The notes: a model not told the origin generated them from the sequence alone. A stretch of DNA of 64,000 nt from Isurus oxyrinchus (GCA_026770705.1 JANJGN010000030.1:13206001-13270000); one strand, 5' to 3'. Shown: positions 9,701 through 64,000, counted from the stretch's first letter. Numbers and translations: made by a program.

Positions 9701-10570
9701 TCCTGCACATGATCAATCTGGTCGACAAGCTGAAGTCGTATTCCCAGTACATGACAACACAACTGCCAGGGAGCTCCAAAAAGCTTCAACAGGTACACCA
9801 GGAGTAGATGCGAGATGGAGTGTGTGCCCACATCTCAGTTCTGCCTACGAGGTTGGTCACTGCCGCATCCAGATGGCAATGTTATGAAAATTTACTTCAA
9901 ACAGCAGAAACACTTCACTGTTATTGATGGACCTGCTATTGTATGATGAATGTTTGGCCATTTCTGTCTCACCCTGGCCAGAGATTCTACAATAAACCCA
10001 CCAACGCCACTTGGGCATCACCAGTGTAGAGCAGGAGCCCAGTCTGCACTGTGGTGGCCGGGACTATTGAGCGATTGAAGAGATGATTTTAAACTGCCAT
10101 GTGTGCGTGCTGTGCAAACCAGTCCAGAAGGGGAATCCCTTATCCTCATACAGTTCCCTACCAGACTATATTAACTTTTGGGAATGGATCAATTCATATA
10201 TAATGGCAAGTCCTTCCTCATTATTGTTGATTATTTCTCTCGGATCGAAGAGAAGTGTTTACACACAACCACAGAGTCGGTCATTAGGTCGTTGAAAGAA
10301 ATTTTGTGATCCATGGCATATATTCATTTGCTATTGAATAATTCACTTTTTTTCTGGAATTGCTGCTTTCAACACCTCATCAGCTCCCCAAGGCATCCAC
10401 AGTCTAACGGTGAGAGGGAAAGGGGCGTCTGCACTATTAAAATCCTCCTGAAAAATTATGACTTTCTAATGGTGCGTTTGAGACAGATCCACCCCACTAC
10501 AATGTGAATTAGCCCCATCAGAACTGCTGATGGGCAGAAAACTTTGCACTTAACTTCTCATGCTGCCAGA

Positions 10571-24729: not shown

Positions 24730-25819
24730 GCCTGAGTGTGGCATTAAGGAGCCCTAGCAAAACTGGAGTCAATGGGAATCGGGAAAACTCTCCACTGGCT
24801 GGAGTCATACCTAGCACAAAGGAAGATAGTTACGGTTGTTGGAGGTCAGTCATCTCAGCTCCAGGACATCACTGCAGGAGTTCCTCAGGATGGTGTCCTT
24901 GGCCCAACCACCTTCATCAATGGCCTTCCTTCCATCATAAGGCCAGAAGTGGGGATGTTCACTGATTGCACAATGTTCATCATTCGTGACTCCGATGCTG
25001 TAGTAGCCCATGTCCAAGTACAGCAAAACCTGGACAATATCCAGGCTGACAAGTGGCAAGTAACATCTGTGCCGCACAAGTGCCAGGCAATGACCATCTC
25101 TAAGAAGAGAGAATCTAACCATCGCCCCAAGACATTCAATGGCATTGCCATCACTGATTCCCCCGCTATCAATGTCGTGGGGGTTACCATTGACCAGAAA
25201 CTGAACTGGACCAGCCATTTAGATACTGTGGCTACAAGAGCAGGTCAGAGGCTAAGAATCCTGCAAAGAGTAACTTGCCTCCTGCCTCCACAAAGCCTGT
25301 GCACTATCTACAAGGCACAAGTCAGGAGTGTGATGGAATGCCCTCCTCTTGCCTCAAGAAGCTTGACATCACCCAGGACAAAGCAGCCCACTTGATCAAC
25401 ATGACATCCACAAACATTCACTCTCTCTATCACTGATGCACAGTAGCAGCAGTTTCTACCATTTACAAGATGCACTACAGGAATTCACCAAGGCTCCTTA
25501 GATAGTACCTTCCAAACCCCTGACCACTACCATCTAGAAGGACAAAGGCAGCAGACACAAGAACACCAACTGGAAGTTCCCCTCCAAGTCATTCACCATC
25601 CTGACTTAGAAATATATCACTTCTTTTACTGTCGCTGGGTCAAAATCCTGGAACTCCCTTCTTAACAGCAGCGTTCCTAACAGTACCTACACCACATGGA
25701 CTGCAGCAGTTCAAGAAGGCAGCTCACCACCAGCTTCTTGGGGGCATCTAGGGATGGACGATAAATGCTGGCCCAGCCAGCGAAGCCCACATCCCGTGAA
25801 TGAATTTTAAAAAAAAAAA
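24730..25819 (+). mobile_element. 5'-truncated FADD-family LINE with poly(A) tail
   Basis: ORF 24772-25395: WLESYLAQRK...ITAGVPQDGVLGPT...TIYKAQVRSVME; tail ends cccgtgaatgaattttaaaaaaaaaaa. Confidence 0.88.
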
Positions 25820-32440: not shown

Positions 32441-33548
32441 ATGGATACCAGTGAAGAGCTTCCAAAAAAAGTCTTCAAGGCCAGAAAAACAATGCGCGCA
32501 AGTGACCGACAACAGCTAGAGGCTATCTATAAAAGCAGAGAGGAACTTTTAAAAGCCAATGAAGAGACCAAAACTAAACTGTGTAATGGTAGACATGAAA
32601 ATGGAGATTGTGACAACAAAGCTTCACTAAATACTAACTGCATGGATGATGCTGACATTGATAGTATTAATGATGTGAGGCTGGGACCTGAGGAACTGCA
32701 AGGCAACTCCATTGATGAACTTAGTATCACACAAACACCTGAACTAAACTTTGCTGAAAAATGTCTTAATGAAACTAAGGATTTAAGCTCAAAAGATGAA
32801 AAAATGGACTCGACATCCCCAGCTGCTAAAGATGAACAGATTTCTACTGGGAGCACAGGAAACCAAATTTTGGTAGATGTTGAGAGCAAAAGAGATGACA
32901 CTGTGGAATCAGACTGTGTTGAGTTGAAGCAGGATTCTTTAATTGCAGATAAATCATGTTCTGATTCTCAGAGCCTTTCAGAAAAGGAAAGACCACCTTC
33001 TGTTGATGACAGCAGGAGTCAGGAAATACCAGATGAAAGTAGCCTTAAGCTCCAGTCTTCCTCTTCCTCTGTGAGAGAAAAGGAAGACCATGAAAGTTCA
33101 TTGGACATTAGTGAAGAGGCAATAACAAGTAGCATAGAATCTGTGCAGGAGAAAAATGATTGTGAAAGCTCTAAGATGGAATGTGCAGAGACTGAAAGTG
33201 AGATTGCAACAAAAGACAAATTAAGTGAGAACAAATCAGCTGAGAACAACCAACTGGAAATTGAAGAAATAATCCCCATTTTGGAGAAATTGGCCCCAGA
33301 GAAGGACAATGAAATAGCCTGTAACCAAGGAATTGTTCCTGTAGTGGATTCCCCAGCACCAAAGGACAGTCCATCAAAAGACTTGCAGGAAGAACAGATG
33401 GACGCATCTCCATGCAGTTCTCCAACAAAAGAAGAGTGCAATGGCAACTTGCCAGAAGAAGCATTCCTTGTTTTATCAGATGAGGATGAGCCAATAATTG
33501 AGAGTAAAACAGAAAGTGAAGAGCTGGTACCAAAAAATGATGATCCAG
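32441..33548 (+). CDS. ATF7IP: ATF7IP/MCAF1 first coding exon (exon starts 32431, ATG 32441, ends phase 1)
   Basis: MDTSEELPKKVFKARKTMRASDRQQLEAIYK, NGRHENGD, EEIIPILEKLAP and LPEEAFLVLSDED match the ATF7IP N-terminus. Acceptor ttttcttgctttcag, donor CAG/gtatgc. Confidence 0.96.
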
Positions 33549-42329: not shown

Positions 42330-42475
42330 ACGAAGTTGTGCCACGAAAAAGGTCCAAGTCTGAAGATGCGGAAAGCAGTATATCCAAGCGGTGTCGGTTT
42401 TCTGAAGATGAATATGAGGCTGCCTTAAAAGTGAAGATCACTGCCAGAGGGGAGATCCGCCAGACGCTGGAGAAG
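42330..42475 (+). CDS. ATF7IP: ATF7IP third coding exon (146 nt), with basic NLS-like segment and start of SETDB1-binding region
   Basis: (N)EVVPRKRSKSEDAESSISKRCRFSEDEYEAALKVKITARGEIRQTLEK, similar to mammalian RRKRSKSED...EYEAEFQVKITAKGDI. Acceptor tctttgtag, donor AAG/gtatgt. Confidence 0.95.
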
Positions 42476-44611: not shown

Positions 44612-44749
44612 ATTGTTCAACAGATTATTGAAGAACGCATCAGTTCCATGCAGAGTGGTGTTTTCGACAAGAAGCTGGCAGAGCTGAAAAACAGAGTAGA
44701 AAAGATTGAATGCAGCACGAGGCATGAATCTTTAATCAGTGGCTTACAG
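44612..44749 (+). CDS. ATF7IP: ATF7IP fourth coding exon (138 nt), SETDB1-binding coiled coil; GC donor
   Basis: IVQQIIEERISSMQSGVFDKKLAELKNRVEKIECSTRHESLISGLQ, similar to mammalian VFDKTLAELKTRVEKIECNKRH. Acceptor tttttatacag, donor CAG/gcaagt. Confidence 0.94.
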
Positions 44750-45529
44750 GCAAGTACTAGAATCTGTAGCTTTCTGCGATGTAGAGGGTAGAAATAATTT
44801 GGAAATTCTGGGCTGACACTGATGCAATTTTACATGCCCTGTGCATGAACAGCCAGAGCATGGTAATTTTTCAGAATTAGTTGAGTTTTTTCTGTAGTCC
44901 AAAATCCCAGATTAACATACAATAAAAGCTGACTTTGCCTCAACATGCACAGTTGAAAATAAGATGGTCTGCCATTGTCCAGTCAGCTAGAAAGATTGTC
45001 ACTGCTGAATAGTAATCATGTTTATTAACATGTAACTTTTGTTCCTACAAGAATTTATCACAAACAATGCAAACGCTGTAAATTTATGGCTCCCAACCTA
45101 ACTTTGAAGGATGTGGATTTGCAGCTGCCTTTGACCAAAAGAAGGAAGCAAGAGCAAATAAATGTGTGCCATATTTCTCTGCCTTTCATTAACTCGCATT
45201 GACAAAGACCTATTGGCAATTCAGGCTTGCTGCTTTACCATGTTGCTGTGTGAAGTACTTTCTTCAAGCAGAACTTGCTCTTTTAATGATCTTATCACAA
45301 AAATCCTGAAAGGTACAATGCAAAAAATATAATGACTAAAAACTATCAGTCATAAATTATTGATTTGAAATTTCTGCTTGTTTGCTTGATCTGTTGTGAT
45401 GGTCCCAGAATCAGACATGCACAGCAATTGCCTCCCAAACTATACATGATATCAACGATGAAAACACAAACCAAAAACGCTTGGCTATTTTTGAACGTTG
45501 CAGAAATCTTAACAGGCGCTATCTTAACT

Positions 45530-46093
45530 CTGCCACATGTCACCTGGAATATTGTGTGCAGTTTTGGTCATCTTATCTGAGGAAGGATGTTCTTGCTATA
45601 GAGGGAGTGCAGCAAAGGTTTACCAGACTGATTCCTGGGATGGCAGGACTGACACATGAGGAGCGATTAAGTCGGTTAGGATTATATTCGCTGGAGTTCA
45701 GAAGAATGAGGGGGGGATCTCATAGAAACCGATAAAATTCTAACAGGACTAGACAGGGTAGATATAGAAAGGATGTTCCCGATGGTGGGGAGTCCAGAAT
45801 CCGGGGTCACAGTCTGAGGATAAGGGGTAGACCATTTAGGACTGAGATGAGAATTTCTTCACCCAGAGAGTGGTGAGCCTGTGGAATTTACTACCACAGA
45901 AAGTAGTTGAGGCCAAAACATTGTATGTTTTCAAGAAGGAGTTAGATATAGCTCTTGGGGCGAAAGGGATCAACGGATATGGTGAGAATGCGGGAGCAGG
46001 CTATTGAGTTGGATGATCAGCCATGATCATAAGGAATGGTGGAGCAGGCTTGAAGGGCCGAATGGCCTACTTCTCCTATTTTCTATGTTTCTA
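45530..46093 (+). mobile_element. CR1 (HER1-like) LINE 3' end, well preserved
   Basis: HLEYCVQFWSSYLRKDVLAIEGVQQRFTRLIPGM...LGLYSLEFRRMRG; tail gaagggccgaatggcctact...ttctatgtttcta. Confidence 0.9.
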
Positions 46094-46685
46094 TATTTGT
46101 CTACTGCTATGTGTTATGATTCTAGTGTACAAATACCTGATATACCTTTGCACCAGATAGGTTCAAGTTTCATATTCATCAAATCACAATATACCAATCA
46201 GTAAAAAAACCTATCAGTAAGCAGGAATGAAAAATTGGCAGCTACCAATAAAATGAAAAAGCAAAAAAATTACATTACTCAGTATTGTCATACTCATTAT
46301 TGTCAAATGACTTGGCTCTTATGCTCACAGCAGTTGTAAAGGGCTCTAATACAAAATACTTTTTTTTTGCCTTACTTATCTTGTGATGGGGCTAAAGGCA
46401 AGTATGTTTTTATGAAACACAATTCACTGAAAATTTAATTTGTGGTAATCTCTGCCCATGGAGCAACCCATCATCTGACTTTCCCTGAGCAATGCCATAC
46501 TACGTCTAATATTTGAAATCATAGATTGAAAATAATTTAAATTTATTACACCATAAATACAGGGGAGTCCTAATGAATACCACTGCCTAGATGGGTTGAT
46601 GGGGTGTAGCATTATGTCCAGTAATATCAATGAAAGAGGTATTAAACATCAAACCCGTTAAATCTGCCACCTAATCAGTGTACAC

Positions 46686-48017
46686 TAGCGGTTCCCGTAC
46701 TTTTTTGGTTGTGTACCCTTATTCAGATTTACTGACTTGGTGCATACCCCTACACGCAGTTCCTTTTATGACCAGGCATTTTGTAACTCATTATAATTAC
46801 ACTTTATTATAAACATATATTTACCTGTAATAATGTTTTACTTGCCTTTAATGTGATGGATGAGCTTGTTTGTTGGAGCATAAGCACTTGAAAGTGGGAG
46901 AAATGGGTGACAATTTCGGTCACAAACTGTTTTCAACACATACGTTGATGGCTCTTAGATTTCGATCCATTGAATGCCAAAAATCATCTTTCATAAAGTT
47001 AAGTCATGATGACCCAAGTGCCCCTGCCCCAGTTCCCCCCATTCACTCAGACAGTCAGGAGCCCCTCTTCCAATGCACACACGTGCGCAGACTCTCGCTC
47101 AGCCCCTCTTCTCTTTTTCCTCCGCCACGGTGTTTGGTCTTGTTACCAGTGCCTGTGAAGCAATACCGCTAGCATGGGGTAAGGAGGTTGCTCAACAGAC
47201 AGAAGGAGCAGAAACATAAATAAAAGTAGATTTCCCTGTGGATAGTTCCACTCAGAAAGACAGTGATTTTGAAGTATTTGGATGTCCTTGTTCCCTCTGC
47301 CAGTTATTACTCTGTGCAGCAGCAACTGAGCCAAGCACTCCTTGTGTTTGTGAGACAGCTGCACCACGGTGATGGCTGCAGCCAGGCAGGCCATGGCCCC
47401 CCAGCAGTCCGCTGACCTGTGGGTCAAGCAGTTGTCTCTCCCACAATGTTTTGGCCACCAGCTGCTGCTCTCGCACCACCACTGCGCTGATGCTCAGACT
47501 ATTGTGCCACCACTCATCATCCTGGTTTTTTTTTCTGCACTCAGAGACTTGATTACACTTGCCTACCACTGCCTGTGCTAAATCGGTGCCCAGCATCCTG
47601 GGCCCGTTTGGCATTCTCTTTAAGTCTGTGGTTAAAGGGCAGCTCACGACCTCAGATGTATTCTCCAATCACAGATTTTTCTCTCTCCTGCACTCACTGC
47701 TGCTCCAATCACGGATTCCCTCTCTACCCGCTTGTTGCTCCCCCAATCACAACTGCATCTTTTTTCCACTCTTGACTAGAGAAACCTATGCTTTTGTTGC
47801 AGTTTATGTTTAGCCCCGCCCTCTGCTTGAGTTCGCTGCTGTGAATGGCCCACAGTTTGGGAACCCCTGGACGATAGCAAGGGGTGGCAGAGGTCACAAA
47901 CATTTCTCATCTCTGAAAATAGAACAAAATCCACCATTGCACAATTTCTATTAAGTACCCCCGAGGGACATCTGCTGTATCCCAAGGGGTATGAGTAACC
48001 CACTTTGGGATCCACTG
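46686..48017. mobile_element. Non-autonomous hAT (Charlie-like) DNA transposon
   Basis: Imperfect TIRs TAGCGGTTCCCGTAC and CTTTGGGATCCACTG; subterminal GTACCCC motifs at both ends; 8-bp flanks GTGTACAC/GCATACAT differ only by transitions. Confidence 0.6.
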
Positions 48018-48541
48018 GCATACATTGCTGCAATTGCCCTGTGTTCAATGTTTGATGACTAGTTTGCCTCTGCTCCCTATTGTGACTGATAACCTGATGA
48101 GCCAGTGAATGAGATGCAGTATCGTAAAGGATGTGTGCTTGTATATCAGAAAATGCAGCAGCTATTGAAAGTGTAGGTGGAGGAAAAAGAACTAACCAAC
48201 TTGCTTTCATTCATGCTCTCAGGAAACCCCAGTTAGTTACTTTTGAAGTGTAGTGTTCCCTAATATAGGAAGCATGACAGCAAATTTGCAATGACGTAAC
48301 GACCAAGTAATCCGTTTTGGTGATGTTGGTTACACTTGAAGCCTTTACCTCCCTTTTAGATGCTAACTATCCTGTGTGCATTTCCAACTTTACAACACTT
48401 ACAGTTCTTACTTTCAAGGCAACCTAACTTAATAACTATTATATCCAGAATCATACTTGACTGACCTGGGTGCATTGGGTCACTCTGGTATTATTTTATG
48501 ACTCAGTTTTTTTAAATTATTGTGTTTTGACTTTTCTGCAG

Positions 48542-48622
48542 GCAAAGCTCATGCAAATAGAGAAAAGGCTAGGCTCAGCAAATCAAGCTCGCAATGATTC
48601 TGCCTTGAAAAAAGCACAAGAG
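48542..48622 (+). CDS. ATF7IP: ATF7IP fifth coding exon (81 nt, phase 0-0)
   Basis: AKLMQIEKRLGSANQARNDSALKKAQE, similar to mammalian AKIARLTKRF...LKKRHE. Acceptor cttttctgcag, donor GAG/gtaggt. Confidence 0.9.
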
Positions 48623-51600
48623 GTAGGTATCAAATGGGACCATTGCTTAATTTGCCTTGGAAAAATAATGTGTTTGGGCCTTATTGCAGTGACCAAGTAG
48701 TATCTCAGTAGTGGCTCAGTACCCTTCTGGATGTATTGAGGGTTAACTTTGAACTTACAGTCATCTCTTTCTAAAAAAAAACTACCCTGCTTTTCTTATT
48801 GTGTATCAAGATCTTGGAATTAGTTCCTGCAAATCTATGTGATTCAAACAGTTGCATCAAGCATCTACATATTGTATGCACCCATACTCCTCTTCTGTAT
48901 GATTACAAATTAACTTTAATTACCTACTAACTCATACAGATCATTCCTTGGGAGAAACACAAATGTTTTCAATAAAAGAATAACCCTCACTGCAGCTTGA
49001 AACAACATATTCTGGCATGCGTGTACTTTCTGTTTGTAGAGCAGGAGAAAGGAATAGAAGTAAGGAATCTAAAATTGATCTAGCGATAATAAATGGAAAA
49101 GACTTATAATTTTAATTTGGAAGTTTTGCTTGACGGATGTAGCTTTATAAATTACTTTATAACCATTGTTTACCTTTTGGAACCTTAATGGGCCTTTGCA
49201 GATACCAATCTGGTGGAAATATTAATTTGTGAATGTGCAAGAAGTATCTTAAACTGTGGGATAAACTTCAAAGTACAAATTATAAAGTAGGGAGGTAAAC
49301 TATAAGTCAAAACTGTCATGGGTCTAAGCAGCCTCCATTTATGCATTAGCTGTTCTTTAGTCTTGGGGTCACCACTGTAGAGTCTGGAAAGTCCTCTTAG
49401 TAGACCAGATATTCAGTAGATGTATGGCATCCTCACTGCATCATCGCTACACAGAGGGCTATTTCTGAGTTTCCAGATGCGGCCATTTGCCTGCACCTCC
49501 GCCTGGTTAAACTTGCACCACAGGTGGCGTGGCAGTTTACAGCAATGCAATCTCTCCTCAGTGGATGCTGGAAGTAAACATGCATTGCAAACAGTATCAA
49601 CCATGTGTGAAATGCTGTTTGAGACATTTTAAGAGCATAAATATGTATGTAAAATTATTTCAGGATTGTTACAGCTTTAGCTTTACTCCTTTAGTACAAA
49701 TTGAGCTCAGGCTATTCTTAGCTGTTGCCCCATTTTCTGCATAATTAACTTATATTTTGCATATCATGTGTAGAAAAAAATGACAAAGTCGATGTCATTG
49801 TGTAGGAGCTGGTTGAGCTTACCCAGTAAATCTATACTTGGACAAAAACAAAGTTTCACTGAATATAATTGTTCCAGTAAAATAAGCTTATCATGTTTCT
49901 GCTCTCAGCCAAGAGAGGAACAAAGGCCAGAAGAGAAGCCCTGGTTTTCTCTGAGCACATAGCTGTGTTATTCCTGATGTAGAATTTATTAAACTCCTTT
50001 AGCCAACTATGCAAGGAATTAAAATTGGACAAAAGTCAGACCTCAAGTTTTCATCCACTGACCTGTGTCACCTGTCTTTGTAAAATTGCTGTTAATTTTC
50101 TCTCTTTCCTCTATTCATGGCTGCAAGAGAGGAAAGAGTTTTGTCGTTGCTGAAAATGTAGAAGTCCCTAGATTATTTTTATCAGTTGGTGCTGATGCAT
50201 CTGTTAAGTTGAGCCATTTTGCTTAAATATACAATAAAAGATGTGTTGATTTAGTTAACTTCCATCGGATCTCTTGCCTGGCAGAGGTTAATTAACAGTG
50301 ATGCACAAGCAAAGATTCAGTAGAATTTTATCAAGACTTTTTTTTCTATTTGGTGTATATGTGTGGCTGCTGAAGGGACCTAGTTTTCACGCTAGCATTT
50401 CAGTACAAACGATACAGTGGTGTCCTTGCATCGTGAATCACACTTTTACAATGAATTTGCAGGCAACAAACACTTCTGAGGGTTACCGACGACCATGTAA
50501 TACTGTCAGGATCCCAAACTTGTATTGCAGCTTGTAAGGTGCTTCTCTTCACTGTCCTCAGCATGCGTGGATATCCATGGTGATTTGTTTATTTCTTCAG
50601 GAACTATTGTTTCTGTGTTCTATAATATGTTAATGTACACGATTTAATAGTTGGCTATTTTACAAGTGCCCTTTTATTTTACACACTATTTCTGCAGCTG
50701 AGGCTTGCTTCTCATTTCAAATCGTCCAATCCCAACTGCTGCCTTTTAGCTTGCGTTCACATGAGTTAAAGGGGAGAATGTTATATAAGGACCAGTTCTC
50801 TGAGTTGTTCTACATTTCGTTTTGATGTGTTTCTAACTTGTGTTGGTCAGAATGCTGTAAAGTTTTATTGGCAACGTTGATTTACATTTCTGCTTGTGAC
50901 TGAAGGAGCTTTTGTGCAATTGAGACTTCAGTGCATTAGCTATCCTGCTGGTTTTGGGACGTGTCTAAATTCTGAATAGCTGCAGGCCGGCACAAAGGTT
51001 GAGTGTGAAGTGAACCATTTTTCAGAATGCAAAATGTTTCTTCCACAAGAGCGTATTTATTTTGATAATTTGATAACTAAAACATTCTCTCTTGACTAAA
51101 ACTTTATAAAAGAGAATGGGAAAATTATGATAAATGCCAAAATTGTGCATTCATTAAAATATTATCTATTAGTGGGATATAACCTGAAGTTCAGTGTTAA
51201 GTCAAACATTCTTAAAATCTTCAGACTTCTGTAACCTTGGTTTATTTTCACCCTCCTGGAGTTTGTCATTGCAGCTGTTTGCCTAACAATATCGAAATGT
51301 GTTCACGTAAAACTGTTGATAGCAAGGTAGTAAGGTAGCAGTGACTCCAGCTGGCTACTGCGTCCATGGAGAGAGAGAGAAATGGTAAGCCTGTTTTGGG
51401 TTTGACACCACGCCATGATAAATGCTCTGTTCATTGCACAAAAGTTAGGACGAGTAAGGCATTGCACCAGAGTTGAAGACCATTTTGTGTAGGAGATGCT
51501 GATTGGTATAAACTAAGAGAAATGCTAAGGGCTTTAAGAAGCTAGCAATAGCTGGCATTTAGACTAGATGGCTTATGGGGGGATATCAGATTTCATGGTC

Positions 51601-51911
51601 TACTGGTCTGCTTTTGTCGTGGAACATTGATTTGGTAATGTGCAAAACTGCTGTACTCATCTGAGATGCTAGGGACATTAACAACTCCTTAATCCTCAGC
51701 ACACAATGTCTGCTTGAATACTGGTCCAATTTGCTAGGGCAGACAAGCTAATTGGTCACTTTATGGTGTAAGGAGAAGCTAGATAAGTTCATGAGGGAGA
51801 AAGGAATAAAAGGATATGTTGATTGAAGGGGGTGAAATAAAAAGAGTGGGAGGAGGCTCATGTGGATATAGACCATTTGGACCAAATGACCTATTTCTGT
51901 GCTTTACAGCT

Positions 51912-52076
51912 AAGCAAATCTTGTGATGCTGGAAATCTGAAATAATAACAGAACATGCTGGAAAAACTCAGCAGGTCTGGTAGCATCTGTGGAGAGAGAA
52001 ACAGAATTAACACTTCCAGTCCAATATGACTCTTGTATGAATCATATTTTACTTGAAATGTTAATACTGTTTCTCT
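51912..52076. mobile_element. Penelope-terminus-derived repeat with partial inverted arm
   Basis: gatgctggaaatctgaaat...gctggaaaaactcagcaggtctgg, same family as 31851 and 59847. Preceded by a CR1 tail fragment (about 51760-51905). Confidence 0.65.
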
Positions 52077-52519
52077 ATACCTGCAATTATAGTACCAGGC
52101 ATGAGTGAATTGCTACATCAGATCTGTTACCTGAGATCTGCTGAATACATGTAGATGGTTATGGAACTTCATGGCATAGTCTTCAACTACTACTACAAAA
52201 TAATTTTGGCCCCCACAAATTTGCACAATTAAGGCATAGTTGTAATCTCTATTTAGGCTGTTTATAGTATTTTGTATGTTTTGCAGCTGTTGCAGTTTCT
52301 AGGATTAAGAATGGGGTAAATAAAACATTTTGATAACTTGCTTTGCTGCAGACCAACAGTTGAGGCTTTCACCTTTTTTAGAATTGCAGCAATGCTTTGG
52401 CTAGTGACCTAGAGAATTCTAATCTACTGCAGCATAACTGTAATTCTAACATTCCTGCTGTTAGTTCTGAAGGTATTAATGCTCCTAATAGTGCCCTCAA
52501 CAATAACATGAGAGTTACT

Positions 52520-52795
52520 ACATAGAGGGCATTTAAGAGTCAACCACTGCTGTTGGAACTACATGTAGGCCAGACCAGGTTAAGAGTGACAGATTTCCTC
52601 CCTTGACAGAGGAAGGACACTAGGGAACCAAATTGGATTTTGCAGCAATTTGGTAGTTTGATCACTATTCCAAATGTAAAAATTAATTGAATTTAAATTC
52701 CTCCAGCTATCCTGGTGGGATTTCAACTCTTGTCCCCAGAAATTTTGTTCAGGCCACTGGATTACTAGTCCTGTAACATGACTATTATGCTACCA
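52520..52795 (-). mobile_element. tRNA-derived SINE
   Basis: Minus strand begins ggtagcataatagtcatgttacaggactagtaatccag (tRNA-like) with B-box-like gagttgaaatccc; the body matches 20785-20850. Confidence 0.6.
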
Positions 52796-52910
52796 TCCTC
52801 CCCTGGCTGTGTACTTGGCTCAGAAACCTCCTAATTTGGTATTTGGAGGGGAGGTGGGGAATAAATGCAGACTTAATAGATTTCCATTAGAGCTGCACCT
52901 AGACAATCCT

Positions 52911-53012
52911 AAACAAAAACAGAATTACATGGAAAAACTCAGCAGGTCTGGCAGCATCGGCGGAGAAGAAAAGAGTTGATGTTTCGAGTCCTCATGACCC
53001 TTCAACAGAACT
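52911..53012. mobile_element. Short Penelope terminal fragment
   Basis: Near-identical to 29224-29326. Confidence 0.75.
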
Positions 53013-55477
53013 GGGTGAATCCCCTGTTCACCAACTTCAGCAGAACAGCTCCTCCGCTGAGTGTGGAGATACAAAATGTGGGTGTTTGTGAGAAGATGAA
53101 ATATCACAAATCCTTTAATAAGGGATATTTAACCTATCAGTGGGGAGCAAGGAAGTACTTCAGATTGAAATTATTGCTCTACAATTTTTTTCCAGGAGAT
53201 ATTCTAGGAGTTCTAAATGTTCTAGGAGATATTCCTATTTGTAGTATATTCTGGCTCGTAACAGGAACATAACCAGGCACAATCATGAACCATGGCCCTG
53301 TGGGTTGCATTTTTTAGACAACTTTAATATTAGTTGGATGTTACTACTTCGTCCTGTGCGTCTTACCACTGTTTAAAGTGTCATAGGTTACTTTGTTTAT
53401 TTTGTATTGATCGTCAGTGAACTGTCATAAATGAGCTTTTTGTAGCAGTTTGGTACAATGATTGACATGCAGTGGCTGCTGTTTGAAAGTAATCTGCTGA
53501 CCAGATGCCAGTCATGCTAAATTTTCCAGCCAAAGCAAATCTCTAATTTGTTCTTGTGCAAACAACCTGTTTGTGGGCAGGTTGGGGGGTGGGGGTCTGG
53601 GGCGGGGGGGTGGGGGGGTGTTGGGGAAGCAAGGATTCAGACAAATTGTAGTCTGTTGAAATTACAGTGTGTGACTGAGATTGGAAGGTGATGCAAAAGA
53701 GGGAAAAGATTGTGAATTTTCTTTTGGAAACTTCAAAAATTTAGAGGTACTATAGGATCTGCACCTAGTGGAGGTATAAATTAGAACTGTTGTATGGGCT
53801 CAGTATTCATGCCTACTGCCCTGCCACCATTCTGTACAGGCTCAGACATCACAACCACTGTTCAGCTGTCATTCTGTTCCATACTGGGAGCTTGAGAGCA
53901 CCTCAATTTTCTAACAGCACGATGGACCTCATGATTGGCTCAAAAATGTTATTCAGGCTGAAACTTCATTTGGCTGCATTATGTTGGAAAATAGTTTGAT
54001 TTACACTGAAAATTAATAATGATTTTTTGAAACCATGCATATACTTGATTTTGTTAAAGAATTTGTTCTCAAAAGCTGGAAGATGAGGTTCTCGTGAAGT
54101 GTGAAAACGGGAGTCCAAATACTTAGATAAAATTAAAATTTTACTGTTTACTGCCATAAGCAGAATTTTGGAACCATGTTACTGACAAACACTTTTTAAA
54201 TTGGATGGATTTCCAAGCCAGTAACTTGGAGTTTTGAACCACCTTTTGTTATCAGGATTGTTCCTCACTTATTACTGTAGTTGTACAATTGCAGTCTGTC
54301 TTAGATGTAGAGATTTGCAGGAAGTACAGATTGATTTTGCAGTGAGCATTGAACACATTGAGAAAACTCAATGGGCTGATTTCCAACTGCCATGTGGAGA
54401 AGTGCACCTTTGGTTTCAGAACCATTCACATGGAGTTTACAGCTTTTTGATTGGATGATCCACCAAAGCTAGTGTGTTGTAAAGATCCCAGTTAAATTCC
54501 TGATGCACTGAACTTGTATCTGCAAGAACCCTGAAAAAACAGCCTGGTTTTCCTCCTCTTCCTCTCGTGATTGATAAGTTATTGATGTCACGATGACTTG
54601 ACAGCCTTCATTCGTTGACATGTAATGACACTGCTGTGGCATCACTGAACAGGATGAGACAAGTACATTTAACTCAAGTAAGTGAGCAAAGTTCTTTTTA
54701 ATCTAATGAAACCATCTGTAAAGAAAGACCTTTAAAGTTAGTGAACTGAGATGAAATGTTATGGGTTGAATAATATATACTATGAGTTGTGATGTACCTG
54801 TTATATGATTCATTTGAATTCTTTGGGCAATTATGCCGGAGCACAAGTTATTTGAAATCTAATTCTCAACTCTGTAATTGGATAGGCTAACAAATGTTTC
54901 TGTTGTTTGAGGTTCAGACTCTTCTCTATTTGGGTTGTAACAAGCCTCCACTATTTGTGGTCTTGAGCTTCTGACTCGATATTGAAGCTTTGCAACTATC
55001 AGGAAATCAAAATCATGCTTGGGTTTTATTTTGAACCAGGAGTGCAATCAATTTGGATTTACTTTGTAGAGTTGAGTAGTGAAAAATTACTAACGCCACT
55101 CGACCCTGAAAATAAACAAATGAGTCCTTGGCTCATAACCAGCATGCTGAAGTTTCAGTGCTTTGTTGTAACCCTAATATTGTGGAAACTGCTTTTAACA
55201 GGAGTGCTGTACATTCAGTGAAACAGACTGCTGGCTGCAATATTGTATAACAGGTGGTGGCATTGCCCCAGACTCTACATGTGATGCACTGAAACCGCTG
55301 AAGTAGTTGCCATCACCAGATGGTTTCTCGTGTTTTCTTCTGCCACCATCCAAAAAGTCAATTGTTCATTGAATCGATTGAAACTCAAAGGAACACAGTT
55401 TAATCATATTTATCTTGCCCCAAATTTTAAGAGGTTCGCTGGCTTTACTGGCAGGTTCTTCTGTTTCTTTGTCTCAG

Positions 55478-57196
55478 ATTCTTGCACCTTTTCAACCAGA
55501 AATGCAATTTGACTTGAGCAACAGAGAGGAGTTCAAGTTGGCAAAGAAAAATGAGACACACCAATTTGGCAAGTCCATTGTGGAGATGGAACAGGTTCTA
55601 CTGCAACTAAATGAAACTCTGTCTCCAACAGGCCCGGCAAGTGTATTGCGCAATCAACAAGTTGCATTACAAGATAATAGATCCGGTAAGCCTTTGAAAA
55701 AGCAGAAAGTTCCACTGGAGGATTGGAGGGTTTTTGCTGAATCAGGCAAAGCTGTTACATTAAAACAACAGGCTCTGTTGCAGCATAACAGAACTCTAAG
55801 TATTAAACAGAAACCCACTACAGATAAACAGCCTGCATTAATAAATGATCAAGGTTACTGTAACTCATTTGGGGACATTATAGTGGAGGAGCATGAGGCG
55901 CCATTAAAAATTAGTAGAACTTCAAAGAGTATGTTTGTCCAGTTAACCACAAGGAAACCACAGGCTTATAATAGTATGTCTGTCAGGCAAAAGTCAGTTC
56001 TTTTACTAAAGGCTAATGGCCCCAGCAGTATATCAAGAAAACCTGACCCAGGACAGCAACAGGTGATACTACTTGAGGAAGTGACTCCCTCTGTTGTCCT
56101 TGATGAGCCTGATGTAAGTAAACCACATGTAATATTACAAGAAAATAAGACTCAGTATAATGAGAGAACTTCAGAAAATCAACATACAGTATTGCTAGAG
56201 AATAGAGCTCCCTTTAATGCATTTGCTGAACCTCCTGTGGAGCAGCAGGTTCTATTGCCGGATGACCAAACTCCCAAAGGCATTTATAAACCTGTCCCAG
56301 ACAACAGAAAGAGGATGATCATACAAGATAGCATAATTCCCTACAATACAAAGAGAGCCACCGCCTGGGGCATTCAGGCTTGGGATGAGTGGGCTAGAAA
56401 CCGAAATAACTGCTTCATGGAAAATAATATGGAATGCTGTGAGTCAACCCTTTATGTGCCGGTACTGTCTCATGAAATAACTCACAGTGAACTGAATTTC
56501 TGGCTGTGCCACTTTGTGGAAGAAGTCCGTCGGCGGGATGGATCATTTTATCCACCTAATTCTCTCCGTCTCCTGTGCTGCTCCATCTTGCGATACTTGC
56601 GTGAAACCTGCCAGCGACTAGACATTGATTTCTTTAACGAATATAATATGGAGTATGCTGCATTTCGGGCTATCCTTGACAGACGCATGAGAAAACTTAA
56701 ACAACAGGGGATTGGTATAGTAAGGAAACAAGCACAGCCTTATTCAGAGGAAGAGGAAGAAAAACTGTGGCAACTAGTTTTTCAACTTCACGATGCAAGA
56801 AGTTACAGTTATGCTGTCTATTTCTACCTCTGTAAAGTCTTTGGTGTACACGCAGCAGTAGAACACAATAAATTGATGGTTGATCAGTTTACCTTTGGAG
56901 CTGATGAAATTGGAGAATATTTGGAATTTGTGGCAAAGCCTTACAGAGGCGGGATCCAAAGAACTAAAGGACACACTTGGCAGTATGCAGATTTAACCAA
57001 CCCAAGGTGTATTGTTTCTCTTTTTCGTCGCTACCTCAGCATGGTTCCAAGTAATGGTCCGTTTTACCGGCGCCCTCTTCCCGGGCGGCTGGAATTCTGT
57101 CAGCAGGCTATTGGAGTTCACACACTGGAGCGTTACTCCAAAGAAATCTGTGAGGCAGGTGGCATTTCAGGACGGCATACTGGCCAATCTGGAAGG
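55478..57196 (+). CDS. 1719-nt exon: degenerate repeat region plus Crypton/DUF3504 tyrosine-recombinase-like domain; predicted alternative ATF7IP exon
   Basis: Uninterrupted 573 codons. IPYNTKRATAWG...W..W, ELNFWLCHFVEEVRRRDGSFYPPNSL, LDRRMRKLKQQGIG...EEEEKLW, FGVHAAVEH, NPRCIVSLFRRYLS, FYRRP, IGVHTL and HTGQSGR are DUF3504/Crypton motifs (ZMYM2-4, QRICH1, KCTD1, KIAA1958 type). Acceptor ttcttctgtttctttgtctcag, donor AGG/gtaagt, both phase 0. Confidence 0.9.
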
Positions 57197-59846
57197 GTAA
57201 GTATGAACAGTGTTTTGTTAATGTTGCAAAGACAGTAGGTGTTTTACTCCCTGGTGTCTATTATATGCATTTCAATGCATCTAACAGTCTGTGTAGAAGT
57301 TAACCCATTGTAGGTATAGTTTGTTGTTAGATGCTATATTTATGCATTCTGTATTTTAAAGGTCAAGTGACAAAGCCTCTTTTTTTACACAATTGTGAAC
57401 TGGAAGAAAACTTAAGTTGCATATACTACTGCATTTTAATTTGATTGCTTTGCCTATTTTAACCCCAATCACTGGTTCTGCTGCCTCCACTTTTGGCACT
57501 TGCTTATAGACCAAATTTAGCCTTGATGCAGCCTTCACTGAGACCCAAGATTGTCTGGTAGGAGCTAATATTCAAGAAGGCTGTCAGATTATATTGTTCA
57601 TATATTCTTCATGCTTTCCCCCTTCTACCCCCTCATCCTTTCCAGTAGGTTTCTGCACGTTGGTCCTTCCAGTGCTCAGGAGTCTCGTCCAACTGCAACA
57701 GGGGTAATGGCAGTCAGTCCTGGAACTTGAATTGCAACTAATAGGCTAAAATTCTACTGCGTGCCACCTGCATTTCTGTTAGCTTCCCACCAAAAGGATG
57801 TCATAATTGTCTAGTAACTGGGAAGCTCTGAGAAACCAATTCCATAATGTTAAAAATGTTGCTTTTAAATTGGGACTCATTAAGATTGTACTGTAAGTAG
57901 ATCAAGTCATCTTCAAAGTGTTGTGGTTACAATTCCATTGAAATTGATGAAGTTTTTGTCCAGCCAGAAATAAATTTGCTCCAGTAACAGACATGGTTGA
58001 ACATGATCTGGAGAGATTGCACCTGTATAATTATAGCCTGCTTCCAGAGATGGTAAATAGTTTCCCAATACACTCTGGTAGCCTTTTCTGAGATTATTTC
58101 AGCTAGGATGAGACTTTTCATGTTGCTTCAGTGGGAATATGAACTTATTCGAGTGTATGATACCATTCAAAAAATCAGCTCTGATTTCCAGTGTTGTAAC
58201 CCCAAAACCAAATATAACCAACTAGAATAAAACTTTATCCTGTTTCCTCCCACCCTGACCTTTTCATACATTAACTTTGCAGTAAGCAGTGATTTACAGA
58301 GATGTGTGAGATCCGTCCATCAATTATCTTTTACTGCAGAAACTTTTTTTCAGTTAATGAAATTTCATTGGTGAGAGCACTCTTGACAGGACAGCTAGAT
58401 TAATTCAAAATTGACATTGATTACCTCTCAGATCATAGCATATATATAAAATAATGTTTATTGCAATGTGCAGCTGCCACCTCCTAGCAATAAAAGTTTT
58501 CAAATTGTTTTTTGACAAAGATATTTTAACTAGGCTTACTGTATTAGGGTCCAAAGTGGGTTCCACTTAGATTGCATTCCTTGCATTATATTCAACAATT
58601 TAATGAAGAATTTGTTTAACCTTTCCAAAAGAATATATTTTCAATTATATTAAAATTTAGGTTCTGAATTATCCTAGTCAAACTCTCCAGACGTTTGACG
58701 GAACCTTAACGAATCATGTAAAATATTAAACTTCATATTTTAATTATTCTGTATAGGACCAGAGAAATTAGCTTGAATAAGAATAATGCCATTTTAAAAC
58801 TAGTATTAGGAAGAATTACTTTACGAAGGGTGATAAATTCTGGAATGAACTGCCAAAGTAGGAGGAGGAAAAGGGTTTTCTACAAATTCAGCAGTTTGGT
58901 TGCTAAAGAGATGAGTTTTGGTGAACTCATTTACCATCCTCACTATAACTGTTTGATATGACTTTTGAATAAGTTGGAAGACTTGATAAATCTGCATTCC
59001 AACTGTAGCAAATCCTCCACTGTTTCCGTGGCTTATGGAGGACTTCCATTTTAGTACATGGTCTGTCTCATTAGAAGGTTTGAGAACCTTATTTCAACAG
59101 TGTTCAGTCTTGGGGGCAGTACAGTGAGGTTGAAGGTACTAAGAGCATTTGTAGGTAAGTGTTAAATCATTTTTCATCAACATAATCTGACAGCACAGCT
59201 TATATGTCATCACTGAGTTCCCTTCCTAGCTATTGCCCTTATTTTCATAGTTTAATATTGCCAGACCTAAATGTTTACCTAAGACAAAATTTAAAAACAC
59301 CATTATCCGAATAGTTTCATTTTTTGAAATTGGATTTGTATTTTTTGTTCACAATGACCATTGACGTTCTAATCAGAAATTGAGAAAAGCTTTGTCATTT
59401 GAACTTTAAAAAAACTTTCTGATAATTTTTAATACTTGATACTTGTGGCTTATTGGTGTTAATACAGCGGAGCCCTGCAACAGATCAACATCCAAATTGC
59501 AAAAGGATTTTTCCCCCAGTGTTTAACCATGTTAAAATAATATTAGCTATATTCTAAAGTAGCAGCAAATTTTGTTAACAGTATTGTGATTTCAATAAAG
59601 TTGATCTGAAGTGGACTTCGTCACAGTCTTGAGTTATTGCTGTTGAATTAAAAATGCAGGGTGCTGTATGTGCTACTCTCTCTGATAAATTGTTCATTGC
59701 AAGTATGTATACAATAAGCCCTCACTTTTGCACTGTGACAGACCCCGGTACTTTTTACATTGGGTATCAACTGTCAGTGATGATGGAAACCACCATTTCT
59801 GTATCTTCCTTTATCCTCTGCTTCCCCACCACAACGATGAAGCTAA

Positions 59847-60060
59847 CTGAAATAAAAACACAAAATGCTGGAAAAACTCAGGCCTGGCAGCATCTGAGGC
59901 AAGGGAAATGGAGTTAATGTTTGACTCTTCAGAGTTCTGAAACGGACTCGAGACATTAACTCTATTTCTCTCTCCACAGACACTGCCAGACCGGCTGAGA
60001 TTTTCCAGCATTTTCTGTCATTATTTCAGATTTCCAGCATCCACAGTATTTTGCATTTAT
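59847..60060. mobile_element. Penelope-derived hairpin repeat
   Basis: ctgaaataaaaacacaaaatgctggaaaaactcag pairs with ctgagattttccagcattttctgtcattatttcag. Confidence 0.75.
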
Positions 60061-62029
60061 CTTGATGAAACTGTGTGACAGGAAATGAGTTCTGACATCA
60101 GACACTGCACATGCCTGAGCTATAGTTATTACTAGCTGGCTTTTTGTTTGCTTGCACTAGCAAACCTGATGATCAATCTTGATCAATGCTGCTCATCGAA
60201 TTGCTAAGCTGTTGTTACATCAGTCGACAACAGGATTTGTCCAAGTGGCTGAGATCAAAATTTTGAAAACTGAAATTCAGCTGCAAAGTAAAACTGATGC
60301 AGTATGCCCATGATCTCACAAGTACACTTTTTTTGTTGGCATCAGTATATTGGAGAAACACATCAATTACTGTATTCTGTTTTTTGTCCAATGGTATAGT
60401 GGGGGCCTATTGTATATTTGTTGCAAAAATAATTTAATTCATCTTAGACTGAAACATTCAACAACAGAAATTGCTGACTGTAGTTATACAAATTTTTATT
60501 GAACAAAGAGTTCAAACTCTTCTAACTCCAAGCCCTTGCTCATAACTTTGCATCTAGTAAATTGACCAGTGACAATTTACTTAAGATTGAGCATTGTAAC
60601 AAGTGTTTTTCCTTTTTTGGGGGGGGGGAGGGGGGTTGGGACAGGAGAGGGAATTCTTTTGTTGATGTCTTTGACCATCCAAGCTATTGAAGAGATTTTT
60701 TGGGGTCAAGTATCAGCAAATTCTGTATATTGCTTAATATTTTGTTTTTTAGTGATAGTGGTTTTGAATGTATAATGTGGCTCTCACTTGGGTTTTCTGA
60801 AACTGCCAAATTAATTTATGTTTAACAAAAAAAATCTCTGGTCAAATTGGTTTTGCAAGGAAAAAAAAATATTGACTTGTGCTGTGGTAGAAGTCCATGA
60901 GTCCTGTCTTCACTGGGCCTGCAAACAATTGAACTTGCTGGATGGATGTGCATCCATTGCTATTGAAAATTGACTGGATCACTCAATTTATGTTCACCAG
61001 CTTCACTGTTGCTAAACGCACAAGAGTGTAGAATATGATGTAATTAACTGAGGTGCAATGTTGTTGTTACAGAATTTAAATTAGCCAACCCAAAAAATTC
61101 AGAATGGAAGTGATGTCATGGCATATTTTTTTGGACCTTGCTGTTATAAAATTCAGAATTAAAAGATAGATAAATGTGCCCTTGGGTTTACCCAGAATAA
61201 AGCCTTCATCATGGTTCTCTTGCCCTTCAATTAAATTCTGCTTGCTGTCCTATTTAATCCCTTTAATCCCACTTCTTCCCCCTTGTCCATTTTTTAATTC
61301 ACTTGACACAATCACTTTTTAATGTGAATTTCACACTTTTTTAAGGATCTATTTGTGTCACACTGGTTAGTTATAAGTGTTTATAGGTGCTAGGTGACAA
61401 CCTAATCCCCACCAAATTGCAATGATAGTCATTGCAGAAGTGAGCTGAATGGGTGTTCAGCGATTTTAAGATGTGTTGAATGTATCTCCTCTGAGAGAAA
61501 TCTATTATACTGGTGAAACCCTATTATTGTCATTTCACACTATTGCATTTGTGTTGCCTTTTAGTTTACTTAAAAGTCAACTAGGCATTAACAGAATTCA
61601 CCACTTGAGTTGTATTGGCAAAATGTTTATTTCTTTGTGGAACCATAATTGCAAGTACTGTAAATCCTTTTGCTATTGTGTTTCGCAAACCTTTTGTATA
61701 GGGGAATGCATTAAAGGTTTGGATTTCCTAAATGGCTTTCCCAGTTCATGATATGGCTGACCAATGGGGCATTACAGTCATTCTGGCAAACAAAAAGTAG
61801 TGCTACTATGTTGTACCTTGCAAATGTTAATTAAATTCACCCCAATTTCAAAAAGCCAAAACCGTAAGAAGAAAAACCATTTTGATGCAGTTCAAATCAG
61901 TAGCGCCTAAGTGGTTATCAAATGAAAAATCTTAACGACGAACATCAGAAATCTGTCTGCACAACCCCAGTGACTTGTTCATCTACGCAGGCCTATTTTT
62001 ACTTTTTGTGTGTGTTCATTTTGTTGTAG

Positions 62030-62287
62030 GCCAGCAGTGTAGCTGCCCTTCACAGTCGTGGCTTTGATGAAGAGCTAATTAAGGAACGAATGGGAAATGG
62101 CAGTAGTGCAATGATGTCCTGCAAAAAGACTCAAATGAAGGCAGTATCTGACTGTTTGCAGCCTCCAAATCCTTTGAAGAAAATCTCAGCTTGTTCACAG
62201 TCGTCATCTGCCTTGAGACAGCAAAGTGTTTGTGCACACGAAGCAGTGACCAATAGTCCCCAGCCAGAAACTGAAGTTACAAACTGA
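62030..62287 (+). CDS. Terminal coding exon completing the Crypton/DUF3504 domain
   Basis: Acceptor ttcattttgttgtag, phase 0. ASSVAALHSRGFDEELIKERMGNGSSAMMSCKKTQMKAVSDCLQPP continues the recombinase box II pattern (AT..T.L...G.DE.LI.ERTGH.S.....YK......VS..L). Stop TGA at 62285-62287. Confidence 0.88.
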   Translation, partial: ASSVAALHSRGFDEELIKERMGNGSSAMMSCKKTQMKAVSDCLQPPNPLKKISACSQSSSALRQQSVCAHEAVTNSPQPETEVTN

Positions 62288-62780
62288 GAAGAATTGGTGA
62301 TGGTTGAACTGCCTTGTAGTACACTTTCAACGTTACCAATGTCTTTGTCAAAGTTGCAGTAATGTCAACCTATTATGCTGCTAGAATCTTAACAGTGGTG
62401 TGAAATGACTCCATTTTTATCAGGTTGTAAGAATATGAAACAAACTGATGAGGGGAGATGTGATGTACCTCCTGATTTCTGTGTGTAGCAGTATTTGAGT
62501 TTTTAAGCTCCCATCTGGAAGTGGCTACATTGAGTCAAGAACTGGGGAGGGGAGGCTGGGGATAATGCAAACGTTTTAGTGTTATTTCCTACTAGTGTAA
62601 GATGGTTAAATTTGCAAGGTGATTCTTTTCAAGCACTTTCTCTTCTGTTATGCTATAAATGGATTTATCGTATGTGGTTGTCAGTAATACTAAGGTATTT
62701 TTATCCTTTTTAATTTTGAGATTTCACGTGCAATAAGCAACTAAATGTTAATAACAAAATTGTTACCCTGTCTCCTCATA

Positions 62781-62786
62781 ATTAAA
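62781..62786 (+). terminator. Candidate variant poly(A) signal ATTAAA for the Crypton-ending isoform
   Basis: ATTAAA about 500 nt after the stop, in AT-rich sequence with T/GT-rich sequence downstream; a chance match is possible. Confidence 0.3.
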
Positions 62787-62967
62787 ATTAGTTAAGTCTA
62801 TATAATATATATATATATAATCCCATTGGATTTTATTCTCATTTGCCTAGCAAAGTTACCATCTTTGTTGCCTTGTGTCATTCCTCTTACCACATTGCTT
62901 ATGAGAAAAGATTGGTCTTGTACTTAATGCAGTTTCTGTGCAAGCACTAGCTGTAAAAAGCAAATAC

Positions 62968-64000
62968 TTTTTTCAGTCCGTGGGATATGGGTATCACTGG
63001 CCAGCATTTGTTCTCCATCCTCAATTGCCTTTTAAGGAGCTGGTGGTGATTAACAGTCTTGAACCACTATGGTCCATGTGGTCTTGGTACAACCATAGTG
63101 CTTTTAGGTAGGAAGTCCCATGGTTTTGACCCATTGACGATTAAGGCATGGTAGTATGTTTTCAAGTCAGGATGGTGTGTGACTTGAAGGGAACTTGCAA
63201 GTGGTGGTGCTCCCATATATCAGCTGCCCCCTTCTAGGTGGTAGAAAACTTAAGTTAGGAAGGTGCTGTCAAGGGAAGCCTTGGCAAGTTGTTGCTGTGC
63301 GCTGTGTAGATTGTAAATCCTGTCAGGTGTGCCATTGGCAGAGGGAGTGAATGTTTTAGTGTGGTGGATGGAGTGCTGATCATGTAGTCCTGGATGGTGT
63401 CAAATTTGAGTGCTGTTGCAGTTGCACTCAGGAGTGTGATGGAATATTCTGGCTGATGCTTGTGGACAGAGTTTGGGGAGTTGGGAGGTGAGTTACCTAC
63501 TGTAGAATACTCTGCCTCTGGCCTCTTGTAGCCACAGTAATAACTGGTCCAGTTAACTTTCCTGTCAATTGTAAACCCCAAGATAATGTTAGTGGGGGAT
63601 TCAGCAATAGTAATGCCATTGAATTTCAAAGGGACATGGCTAGATTCTCCCTTGTTTGGGATAGTTTTTCCTGGCACTTGTATGGCATGGATGTAACTTG
63701 CCACTTAACTGTCCAAGACTGAATGTTGCCTGGATCTTGCTGCATATGGACATGGACTGCTTCAGCATCTAAGGAGTTATGAATGGTGCTGAACATTGTG
63801 CAATCATCAGCAAACATCCCACTTCTGATTTTATTATGGAAAGATCATTGATGAAGCCGCTGCAAATGGTTGGGCCTAGAACATTGCCCTGAGGAACTCC
63901 TGCAGCGATGTCATAGCCTTTATGCTAGGTTTGACTCACAACTAGTGGAAAGTTTTCCTCCTGATTCCCATTGACTTCAATTTTACTAAGGCTCCTTGAT
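62968..64000 (-). mobile_element. FADD-family LINE, antisense, runs off the window end
   Basis: Minus ORF MFADDCTMFSTIHNS (63626-63817); tail tgggatatgggtatcactggccagcatt. Confidence 0.85.

Follow-up and report, generated by a model that had tools for sequence, protein, structure and literature searches.

Catalytically dead but strongly conserved Crypton domains have been described in the host nuclear proteins KCTD1, KIAA1958a/b, ZMYM2/3/4, and QRICH1, and it was reported that all seven human DUF3504 domains have lost the catalytic Tyr and the second catalytic Arg (PMC3212892). In KIAA1958, DUF3504-type domains serve as alternative isoform ends (PMC3212892); an overview of DUF3504 domains, intact and dead, is given in PMC13465315. 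PDB 9HJT contains the related domain of QRICH1 in Zincore, a zinc-finger coregulator (PMC13538652), where it was solved along with a zinc-finger protein and SEPHS1. A Crypton within an ATF7IP intron has also been described (Kojima and Jurka 2011, PMC3212892; Frith 2022, PMC9004415). Here, we analyzed a 64,000-nt stretch of the 5.0-Gb Isurus oxyrinchus genome (G000:C30:13206001-13270000, hereafter the window), in which ATF7IP, encoding a partner of the silencing enzyme SETDB1, carries two exons for another Crypton tyrosine-recombinase (DUF3504) domain in the intron that follows its coiled-coil exons. Our overall reading, to which we assign a probability of about 0.6, is that this element is a dead Crypton recombinase that likely forms an alternative end of ATF7IP and would serve as a non-cutting DNA/chromatin tether for SETDB1. 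The two exons, 55478-57196 (exon A) and 62030-62287 (exon B), are organized as follows:

55478..56320, + strand: 5′ part of exon A, a phase-0 acceptor followed by a variable linker of degenerate 22-residue repeats
56321..57196, + strand: 3′ part of exon A, core-binding domain (QRICH1 PF25561) and catalytic domain (DUF3504 PF12012)
56849..56851, + strand: first catalytic Arg position, occupied by His (profile alignment; His in all 10 ortholog species)
56945..56947, + strand: catalytic Lys position, occupied by Arg (AGA; profile alignment)
57185..57196, + strand: HxxR motif, reading QSGR (Gln 57185 for His; Arg 57194 kept; profile alignment)
57197..62029, + strand: GT-AG intron, phase 0 (position same as in a paralog described below; spanned by one X3 contig)
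62030..62287, + strand: exon B, with the last His position, the nucleophile position, and the stop codon TGA at 62285

Exon A lies within a 618-codon open frame (55382-57238), and Pfam recognized the QRICH1 and DUF3504 domains on it with E of 2.4e-16 and 8e-07, respectively. The window scored 60.3 bits for PF25561 and 29.7 bits (equal to the cut-off) for PF12012; the spliced Cetorhinus ortholog scored 59.4 and 30.8 bits. A profile was then built from 13 homologs, 1.84 billion representatives were searched, and 180 domain rows of relatives were tallied. In these rows, the first Arg column held Arg in 149 (14 gaps), the Lys column Lys in 146 (18 gaps), the His column His in 128 (37 gaps), the second Arg column Lys in 80 or Arg in 55 (41 gaps), the last His column His in 112 (58 gaps), and the Tyr column Tyr in 105 (64 gaps); the R-K-H-[R/K]-H-Y set was intact in 90 of the 108 rows with all six columns filled. 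In exon B of the window, Asn 62096 was aligned at the last His position and Cys 62120 at the nucleophile Tyr position. The window thus reads H-R-QxxR-N-C in place of the active R-K-HxxR-H/W-Y set, with five of the six catalytic sites replaced. Meanwhile, 30 of 37 conserved non-catalytic columns were kept, versus one of six catalytic columns (Fisher p=0.004; p=0.03 were the Lys counted as kept). By this comparison, the loss is specific to the active site.

A sequence-only reading of the window had proposed, from an alignment made by eye, that the catalytic residues are substituted while the fold motifs are kept, as in a non-catalytic domesticated scaffold. The column counts above bear out its central point; all six codons that it listed are in frame at their coordinates, and the profile alignment agreed on the changes of Arg to His (56849), His to Gln (57185), His to Asn (62096), and Tyr to Cys (62120), as well as on the retention of Arg 57194. 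Rather than an intact Arg and Tyr, the profile alignment places His and Cys at those two positions. Its claim that the catalytic Lys is kept at 56936, however, has to be corrected: the column in which this Lys sits varies among the relatives (R 74, K 16, G 14, and D 12 of 180 rows) and is Arg in the chimaera ortholog, and the true Lys column, three residues on (56945), holds Arg. We take the latter to be the general-acid Lys column on the basis of conservation and of established tyrosine-recombinase anatomy. It had also been noted that every replaced codon is one base from a codon for the catalytic residue, and this is so; given that four of the replacements are common to the chimaera, these one-base distances do not reflect recent decay.

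Orthologs were found in 10 species, namely Carcharodon, Cetorhinus, Mustelus, two Scyliorhinus, Heterodontus, Pristiophorus, Heptranchias, Rhinoraja, and Callorhinchus. His, Arg, Gln, Arg, and Asn occupied the first five catalytic sites in 10/10 of these species, and the three residues directly after the Tyr site were absent from all orthologs. The Tyr itself was kept in 8/10, with Cys only in two lamniforms and the window; the enzyme therefore died through its Arg, Lys, and His sites, and loss of the Tyr was recent and confined to lamniforms. Identity to the window across the catalytic domain was 90-94% in four other sharks, 81% in the skate, and 83% in the chimaera, compared with 86-93%, 71%, and 64%, respectively, for the first coding exon of ATF7IP. 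When the window was compared with six orthologs modelled as fusions to ATF7IP, identity was 73-91% in the N-terminal domain, 21-74% in the linker, and 88-94% in the exon B core (first 50 codons). The frame was open at the orthologous position in all 10 species, from chimaera to sharks, lineages that split about 400 million years ago. As judged from these alignments, the dead domain has been conserved at the level of the host exons since that split and would be under selection for a non-enzymatic role. When run X1 was compared with the window, exon A showed 12 differences (4 synonymous, 8 not; one of the three in the recombinase domain was non-synonymous), but these are too few and come from single low-depth contigs, and they were not used as evidence. 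A homolog search with a small alignment yielded 2 proteins out of 7997 candidates scored. Family members were met only in chondrichthyans, with one relative in the coelacanth, a distribution from which absence from other bony vertebrates cannot be inferred.

The fold was predicted with AlphaFold2 from the Cetorhinus ortholog P0043 (93% identity to the window, same six residues; 116-row alignment). The predicted local distance difference test score was mostly >90 over residues 300-630 and mostly <50 in the linker and tail. Foldseek and VIA-align ranked Cre/Tre, Xer, and other integrases at the top, and QRICH1 of Zincore was also matched. Cre/Tre was the best match (Z 16.8, root-mean-square deviation 5.2, 282 aligned), and Xer gave Z 16.4 (root-mean-square deviation 2.9, 173 aligned). 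The model thus predicts a tyrosine-recombinase (Cre-like clamp) fold with both core-binding and catalytic domains present. Because these fold searches were made without residue-level superposition, the catalytic positions rest on the profile alignment. Within 54500-63500, no bracketing repeats of at least 16 nt were found, and repeats of 4-6 bp were indistinguishable from chance. Taken together, the site-specific loss, the strong conservation, the occurrence of the family as two single copies, and the lack of bracketing repeats of at least 16 nt make it nearly certain that the element is a catalytically dead and domesticated Crypton recombinase, and not an active element.

The 5′ half of the host gene lies in the window, with the following coding exons:

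32441..33548, + strand: first coding exon of ATF7IP (ATG; acidic N-terminus), matching the beginning of the fused Mustelus model P0025 at 93% identity
37607..37657, + strand: ATF7IP exon of 51 nt (tblastn; AG/GT borders)
42330..42475, + strand: ATF7IP exon, start of ATF7IP_BD (PF16788) (tblastn; Pfam)
44612..44746, + strand: ATF7IP coiled-coil exon (tblastn; joint 44746-48539 in 4/4 runs)
48542..48622, + strand: last ATF7IP exon ahead of the Crypton exons, with a phase-0 donor; the SETDB1-binding coiled coil ends here

The proteins of the window are closest to those of lamniform sharks, the Carcharodon protein being 100% identical to the window protein over the aligned part. Splicing was examined in contigs of runs X1, X3, X5, and X6, none of which is recorded as RNA, the RNA status of X3 being an automated guess. 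Loose contig ends of X1 and X5 indicated that exon 48542-48622 is normally spliced to an exon at window+72485, 8.5 kb past the window, and the Crypton exons therefore sit within a single ATF7IP intron; the last ATF7IP exon, which codes for the FNIII (fibronectin type III) domain, lies ~61 kb past the window end. A frame at 52383 had been considered as the next ATF7IP exon and was rejected, since the contigs run from 48622 to window+72485. The intron between exons A and B (57197-62029) splices SGR to ASSV. This joint was spanned by one 416-nt X3 contig (letters 1-333 corresponding to 62029-62361, letters 332-416 to 57113-57197), the two halves of which were paired by length, depth, and strand, and the same joint is used by the RefSeq proteins of Carcharodon and Cetorhinus.

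The Crypton exons are probably spliced to ATF7IP. An in-frame fusion was modelled in 6/10 species (Callorhinchus, Rhinoraja, Heptranchias, Heterodontus, Mustelus, and Scyliorhinus canicula), with the Crypton exons replacing the FNIII tail; Pfam found both ATF7IP_BD and the recombinase domains in all three fused models scanned, and positions 4 to about 100 of PF16788 were retained in the fused proteins. In a chimaera UniRef entry (P0028), the same ATF7IP exon is joined directly to exon B; we presume this entry to be derived from cDNA. The ATF7IP-exon A joint falls 39 residues past a coiled-coil Cys that we take to correspond to C631. Residues 574-666 of ATF7IP, which include C631, bind SETDB1 as a 2:1 coiled coil (PMC12167477); with the joint beyond this minimal fragment, the SETDB1 module would therefore be whole if the Cys is indeed C631. 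A search of the PDB found no structure of the ATF7IP coiled coil. In mouse, SETDB1 is retained even when FNIII is missing, whereas ZMYM2 and MGA are recruited through this domain; ATF7IP lacking FNIII still holds SETDB1 in the nucleus, and silencing is weaker (PMC7706265).

A series of events could account for these features. The element would have inserted ahead of the chimaera-shark split, and its own in-frame acceptor, just before the start codon of the element, may have captured splicing from ATF7IP. Catalysis would have been lost early and the fold retained, all orthologs having other residues in place of the Arg, the Lys, and both His; the linker may have been enlarged through duplication of a 22-codon unit, and the Tyr would have been lost late, in lamniforms. 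The resulting isoform would retain the whole SETDB1-binding coiled coil and exchange the FNIII adaptor for a built-in DUF3504 domain. Because FNIII recruits ZMYM2 in mouse, itself a DUF3504 protein, an adaptor may have been traded for a DUF3504 domain of the isoform's own. Histone H3 lysine 9 methylation could then be brought to sites bound by this domain, either directly or via zinc-finger partners. This tether role of the fused isoform is put forward tentatively, at somewhat less than even odds. A further extension, in which the dead recombinase still recognizes DNA sites (plausibly the ends of its own Crypton family), so that a transposase would have become an address label for the transposon-silencing machinery, and ATF7IP is a swappable-tail gene that captured Cryptons twice, is speculative and rather doubtful.

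Several observations weigh against the fused, DNA-tethering isoform. The ATF7IP-exon A joint (48622-55478) was not seen in contigs of the four runs, one X1 contig (55132-55685) crosses the exon A acceptor unspliced, and contig cover of exon A was no deeper than that of intronic contigs. The fused ortholog models are predictions, and in 4/10 species (Carcharodon, Cetorhinus, S. torazame, and Pristiophorus) the models are unfused. An internal ATG (55502), 8 codons from the start of exon A, was found in 6/8 aligned orthologs; together with a free-standing paralog that has a stop codon directly ahead of its ATG, this makes separate expression possible. The unspliced X1 contig, the ATG, the unfused models, and the stop codon of the paralog would also suit a free-standing nested gene, with a promoter or 5′ exon of its own in the intron and ATG 55502 as its translation start, the fusions being minor read-through or annotation joins. 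We nevertheless consider such a gene unlikely, although it is to be taken seriously. An identical in-frame junction is modelled in six species from chimaera to catshark, with the same junction residue in 5/6 and a later acceptor in Rhinoraja. Mustelus has lost the ATG, the Rhinoraja model does not contain it, and the frame from acceptor to ATG is open in 7/7 aligned orthologs having that stretch. There is also no upstream Met common to all 8 aligned orthologs.

The net charge of the window-family domain is lower than that of intact relatives (mean +7 vs +13), which also counts against the tether and would suit a domain that has lost DNA binding and acts as a protein-interaction module only, a role that has been proposed for other DUF3504 domains; the related QRICH1 domain was solved in complex with a zinc-finger protein and SEPHS1 (according to the title of the PDB entry). 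Alternatively, an FNIII-less isoform might titrate SETDB1, consistent with the weaker silencing by FNIII-less ATF7IP noted above (PMC7706265). Yet all orthologs conserve the two DNA-clamping domains as well as the second Arg, and a simple competitor would have no need of a 90%-conserved domain; we regard these possibilities as quite improbable. A transposon copy without a role in the host, either decaying or still mobile, would agree with the recent loss of the Tyr and with a labile C-terminal tail, but this reading is refuted by the conservation data, namely the orthologous position with an open frame from chimaera to sharks and conservation equal to that of host exons; only two family loci (a lower bound) were found in 5 Gb, and bracketing repeats of at least 16 nt are lacking. 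We give this explanation almost no weight. The lability of the tail of exon B is itself plain: at the stop codon 62285-62287, one contig and the Carcharodon protein have Gln and extend by 24 residues, and in other sharks the end of the protein is in a shifted frame. The fused, catalytically dead tail of ATF7IP thus remains our preferred reading.

The 22-residue period of the linker was reproduced in 1/300 shuffles for the window and 0/300 for Heptranchias. In Heptranchias, three linker units resembled the first 21 residues of the recombinase domain (p 0.005-0.033); for the window, the same resemblance was not significant. The X1 contig mentioned above ceases to fit at 55685, with 29 letters left, at GTAAGC, a possible alternative donor within exon A. 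Rfam gave no match. Retroelement fragments and high-copy short repeats were seen at 7700-9900, 24750-25400, 45400-46000, 51775-53020, and 59850-60060, and nested inverted arms occur in the repeat at 59847-60029.

Two loci of the family, each single-copy and 67% identical to one another, were found in the 5-Gb genome, two being a lower bound. The paralog (G000:C14:27616186-27621942, minus strand) carries an intron at the same codon as the window gene and sits nested within a BMPR2-type gene, antisense to it and between its exons (Pfam Activin_recp; gene name read from exons). Its six sites are Cys, Asn, His, Arg, Pro, and Tyr, and it belongs to a 20-member cluster that extends from rays to sharks and also includes chimaera, with >90% conservation among elasmobranchs. 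That the host genes differ suggests that one Crypton family inserted twice and that both copies were domesticated and are dead. The tail of the paralog carries an IIIISED stretch, which we take to resemble a SUMO-interacting motif. In a quick tree (41 rows chosen from 142, themselves kept of 178), the window family, the paralog, a coelacanth protein, and invertebrate Cryptons grouped together, and the vertebrate group had a Shimodaira-Hasegawa-like approximate likelihood ratio (SH-aLRT) support of 98; the long branches KCTD1 and KIAA1958 were placed unsurely, and ZMYM/QRICH1 were left out of the trees because of their split exons. The coelacanth protein (P0004, Latimeria LOC102346282) keeps the first Arg and has lost both His and the Tyr. 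The nearest tree relatives, with the same domain order, are the invertebrate CryptonA-type recombinases of Ptychodera (P0045, 55% identity over the catalytic part), Branchiostoma (P0049), and Patella (P0052), which keep R-K-H-K/R-H-Y where complete, many of them with Lys in place of the second Arg. HSGK replaces HxxR in a large group of invertebrate Cryptons, including P0005/P0045 (Ptychodera) and P0049/P0192 (Branchiostoma); some unspliced invertebrate records stop just past HSGK/HSAK, suggesting the same intron, and recent mobility is hinted at by near-identical invertebrate pairs located on separate long contigs. A KIAA1958-like DUF3504 locus in the same genome as the window (G000:C8:45636758-45637207, minus strand) has two stops in the Pfam match and is possibly a decayed KIAA1958L.

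The window family shares with the published ATF7IP Crypton its host gene, its superfamily, a possible use as an alternative exon, and an ancient presence in jawed vertebrates; the published element, however, is only 21% identical and lies three ATF7IP exons further 3′. The published chimaera sequence (PMC3212892 supplement) matched an open reading frame (ORF) 18 kb past the window (G000:C30:13287943-13289310, + strand), which is intronless, 456 codons long, and intact at R, HSLR, H, and Y; at the 5′ end, it has a strong acceptor rich in pyrimidines. This ORF might provide ATF7IP with a second alternative tail and might encode a live recombinase. The published Crypton grouped with KCTD1, and a single clade with the window family was rejected (approximately unbiased test on 18 rows, p 1.9e-58). 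The two are distinct elements; of the two unrelated Crypton recombinases that ATF7IP harbours, one is dead and the other intact. Donation of a Tyr in trans to the intact recombinase was considered and dropped, given the 21% identity and a Tyr that is gone in the lamniform lineage.

No description of the window family was found in the searchable literature, with subscription papers and Repbase outside the search; it is not among the Cryptons in the accessible part of PMC5753468, and two chimaera accessions in Table 3 of PMC3212892 could represent fragments of this family. Both dead DUF3504 domains and the recruitment of such domains as isoform ends have precedents; what we report is an independent and apparently undescribed Crypton domestication, one more beside the four described for vertebrates, in a lineage separate from the domesticated DUF3504 genes placed in the trees. 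The predicted fold is shared with Cre/XerA and with QRICH1 in Zincore on DNA (PDB 9HJT), although identity to Cre/Xer is about 11-17% and their catalytic pocket is gone from the window domain. If the fusion is expressed, it offers a natural test of DUF3504 function, with the domain joined directly to a SETDB1-binding module. Unlike the human domains, the window family keeps the second Arg (10/10) and usually the Tyr (8/10), and has lost the first Arg, the Lys, and both His, a different pattern that provides a comparison for residues involved in binding versus chemistry.

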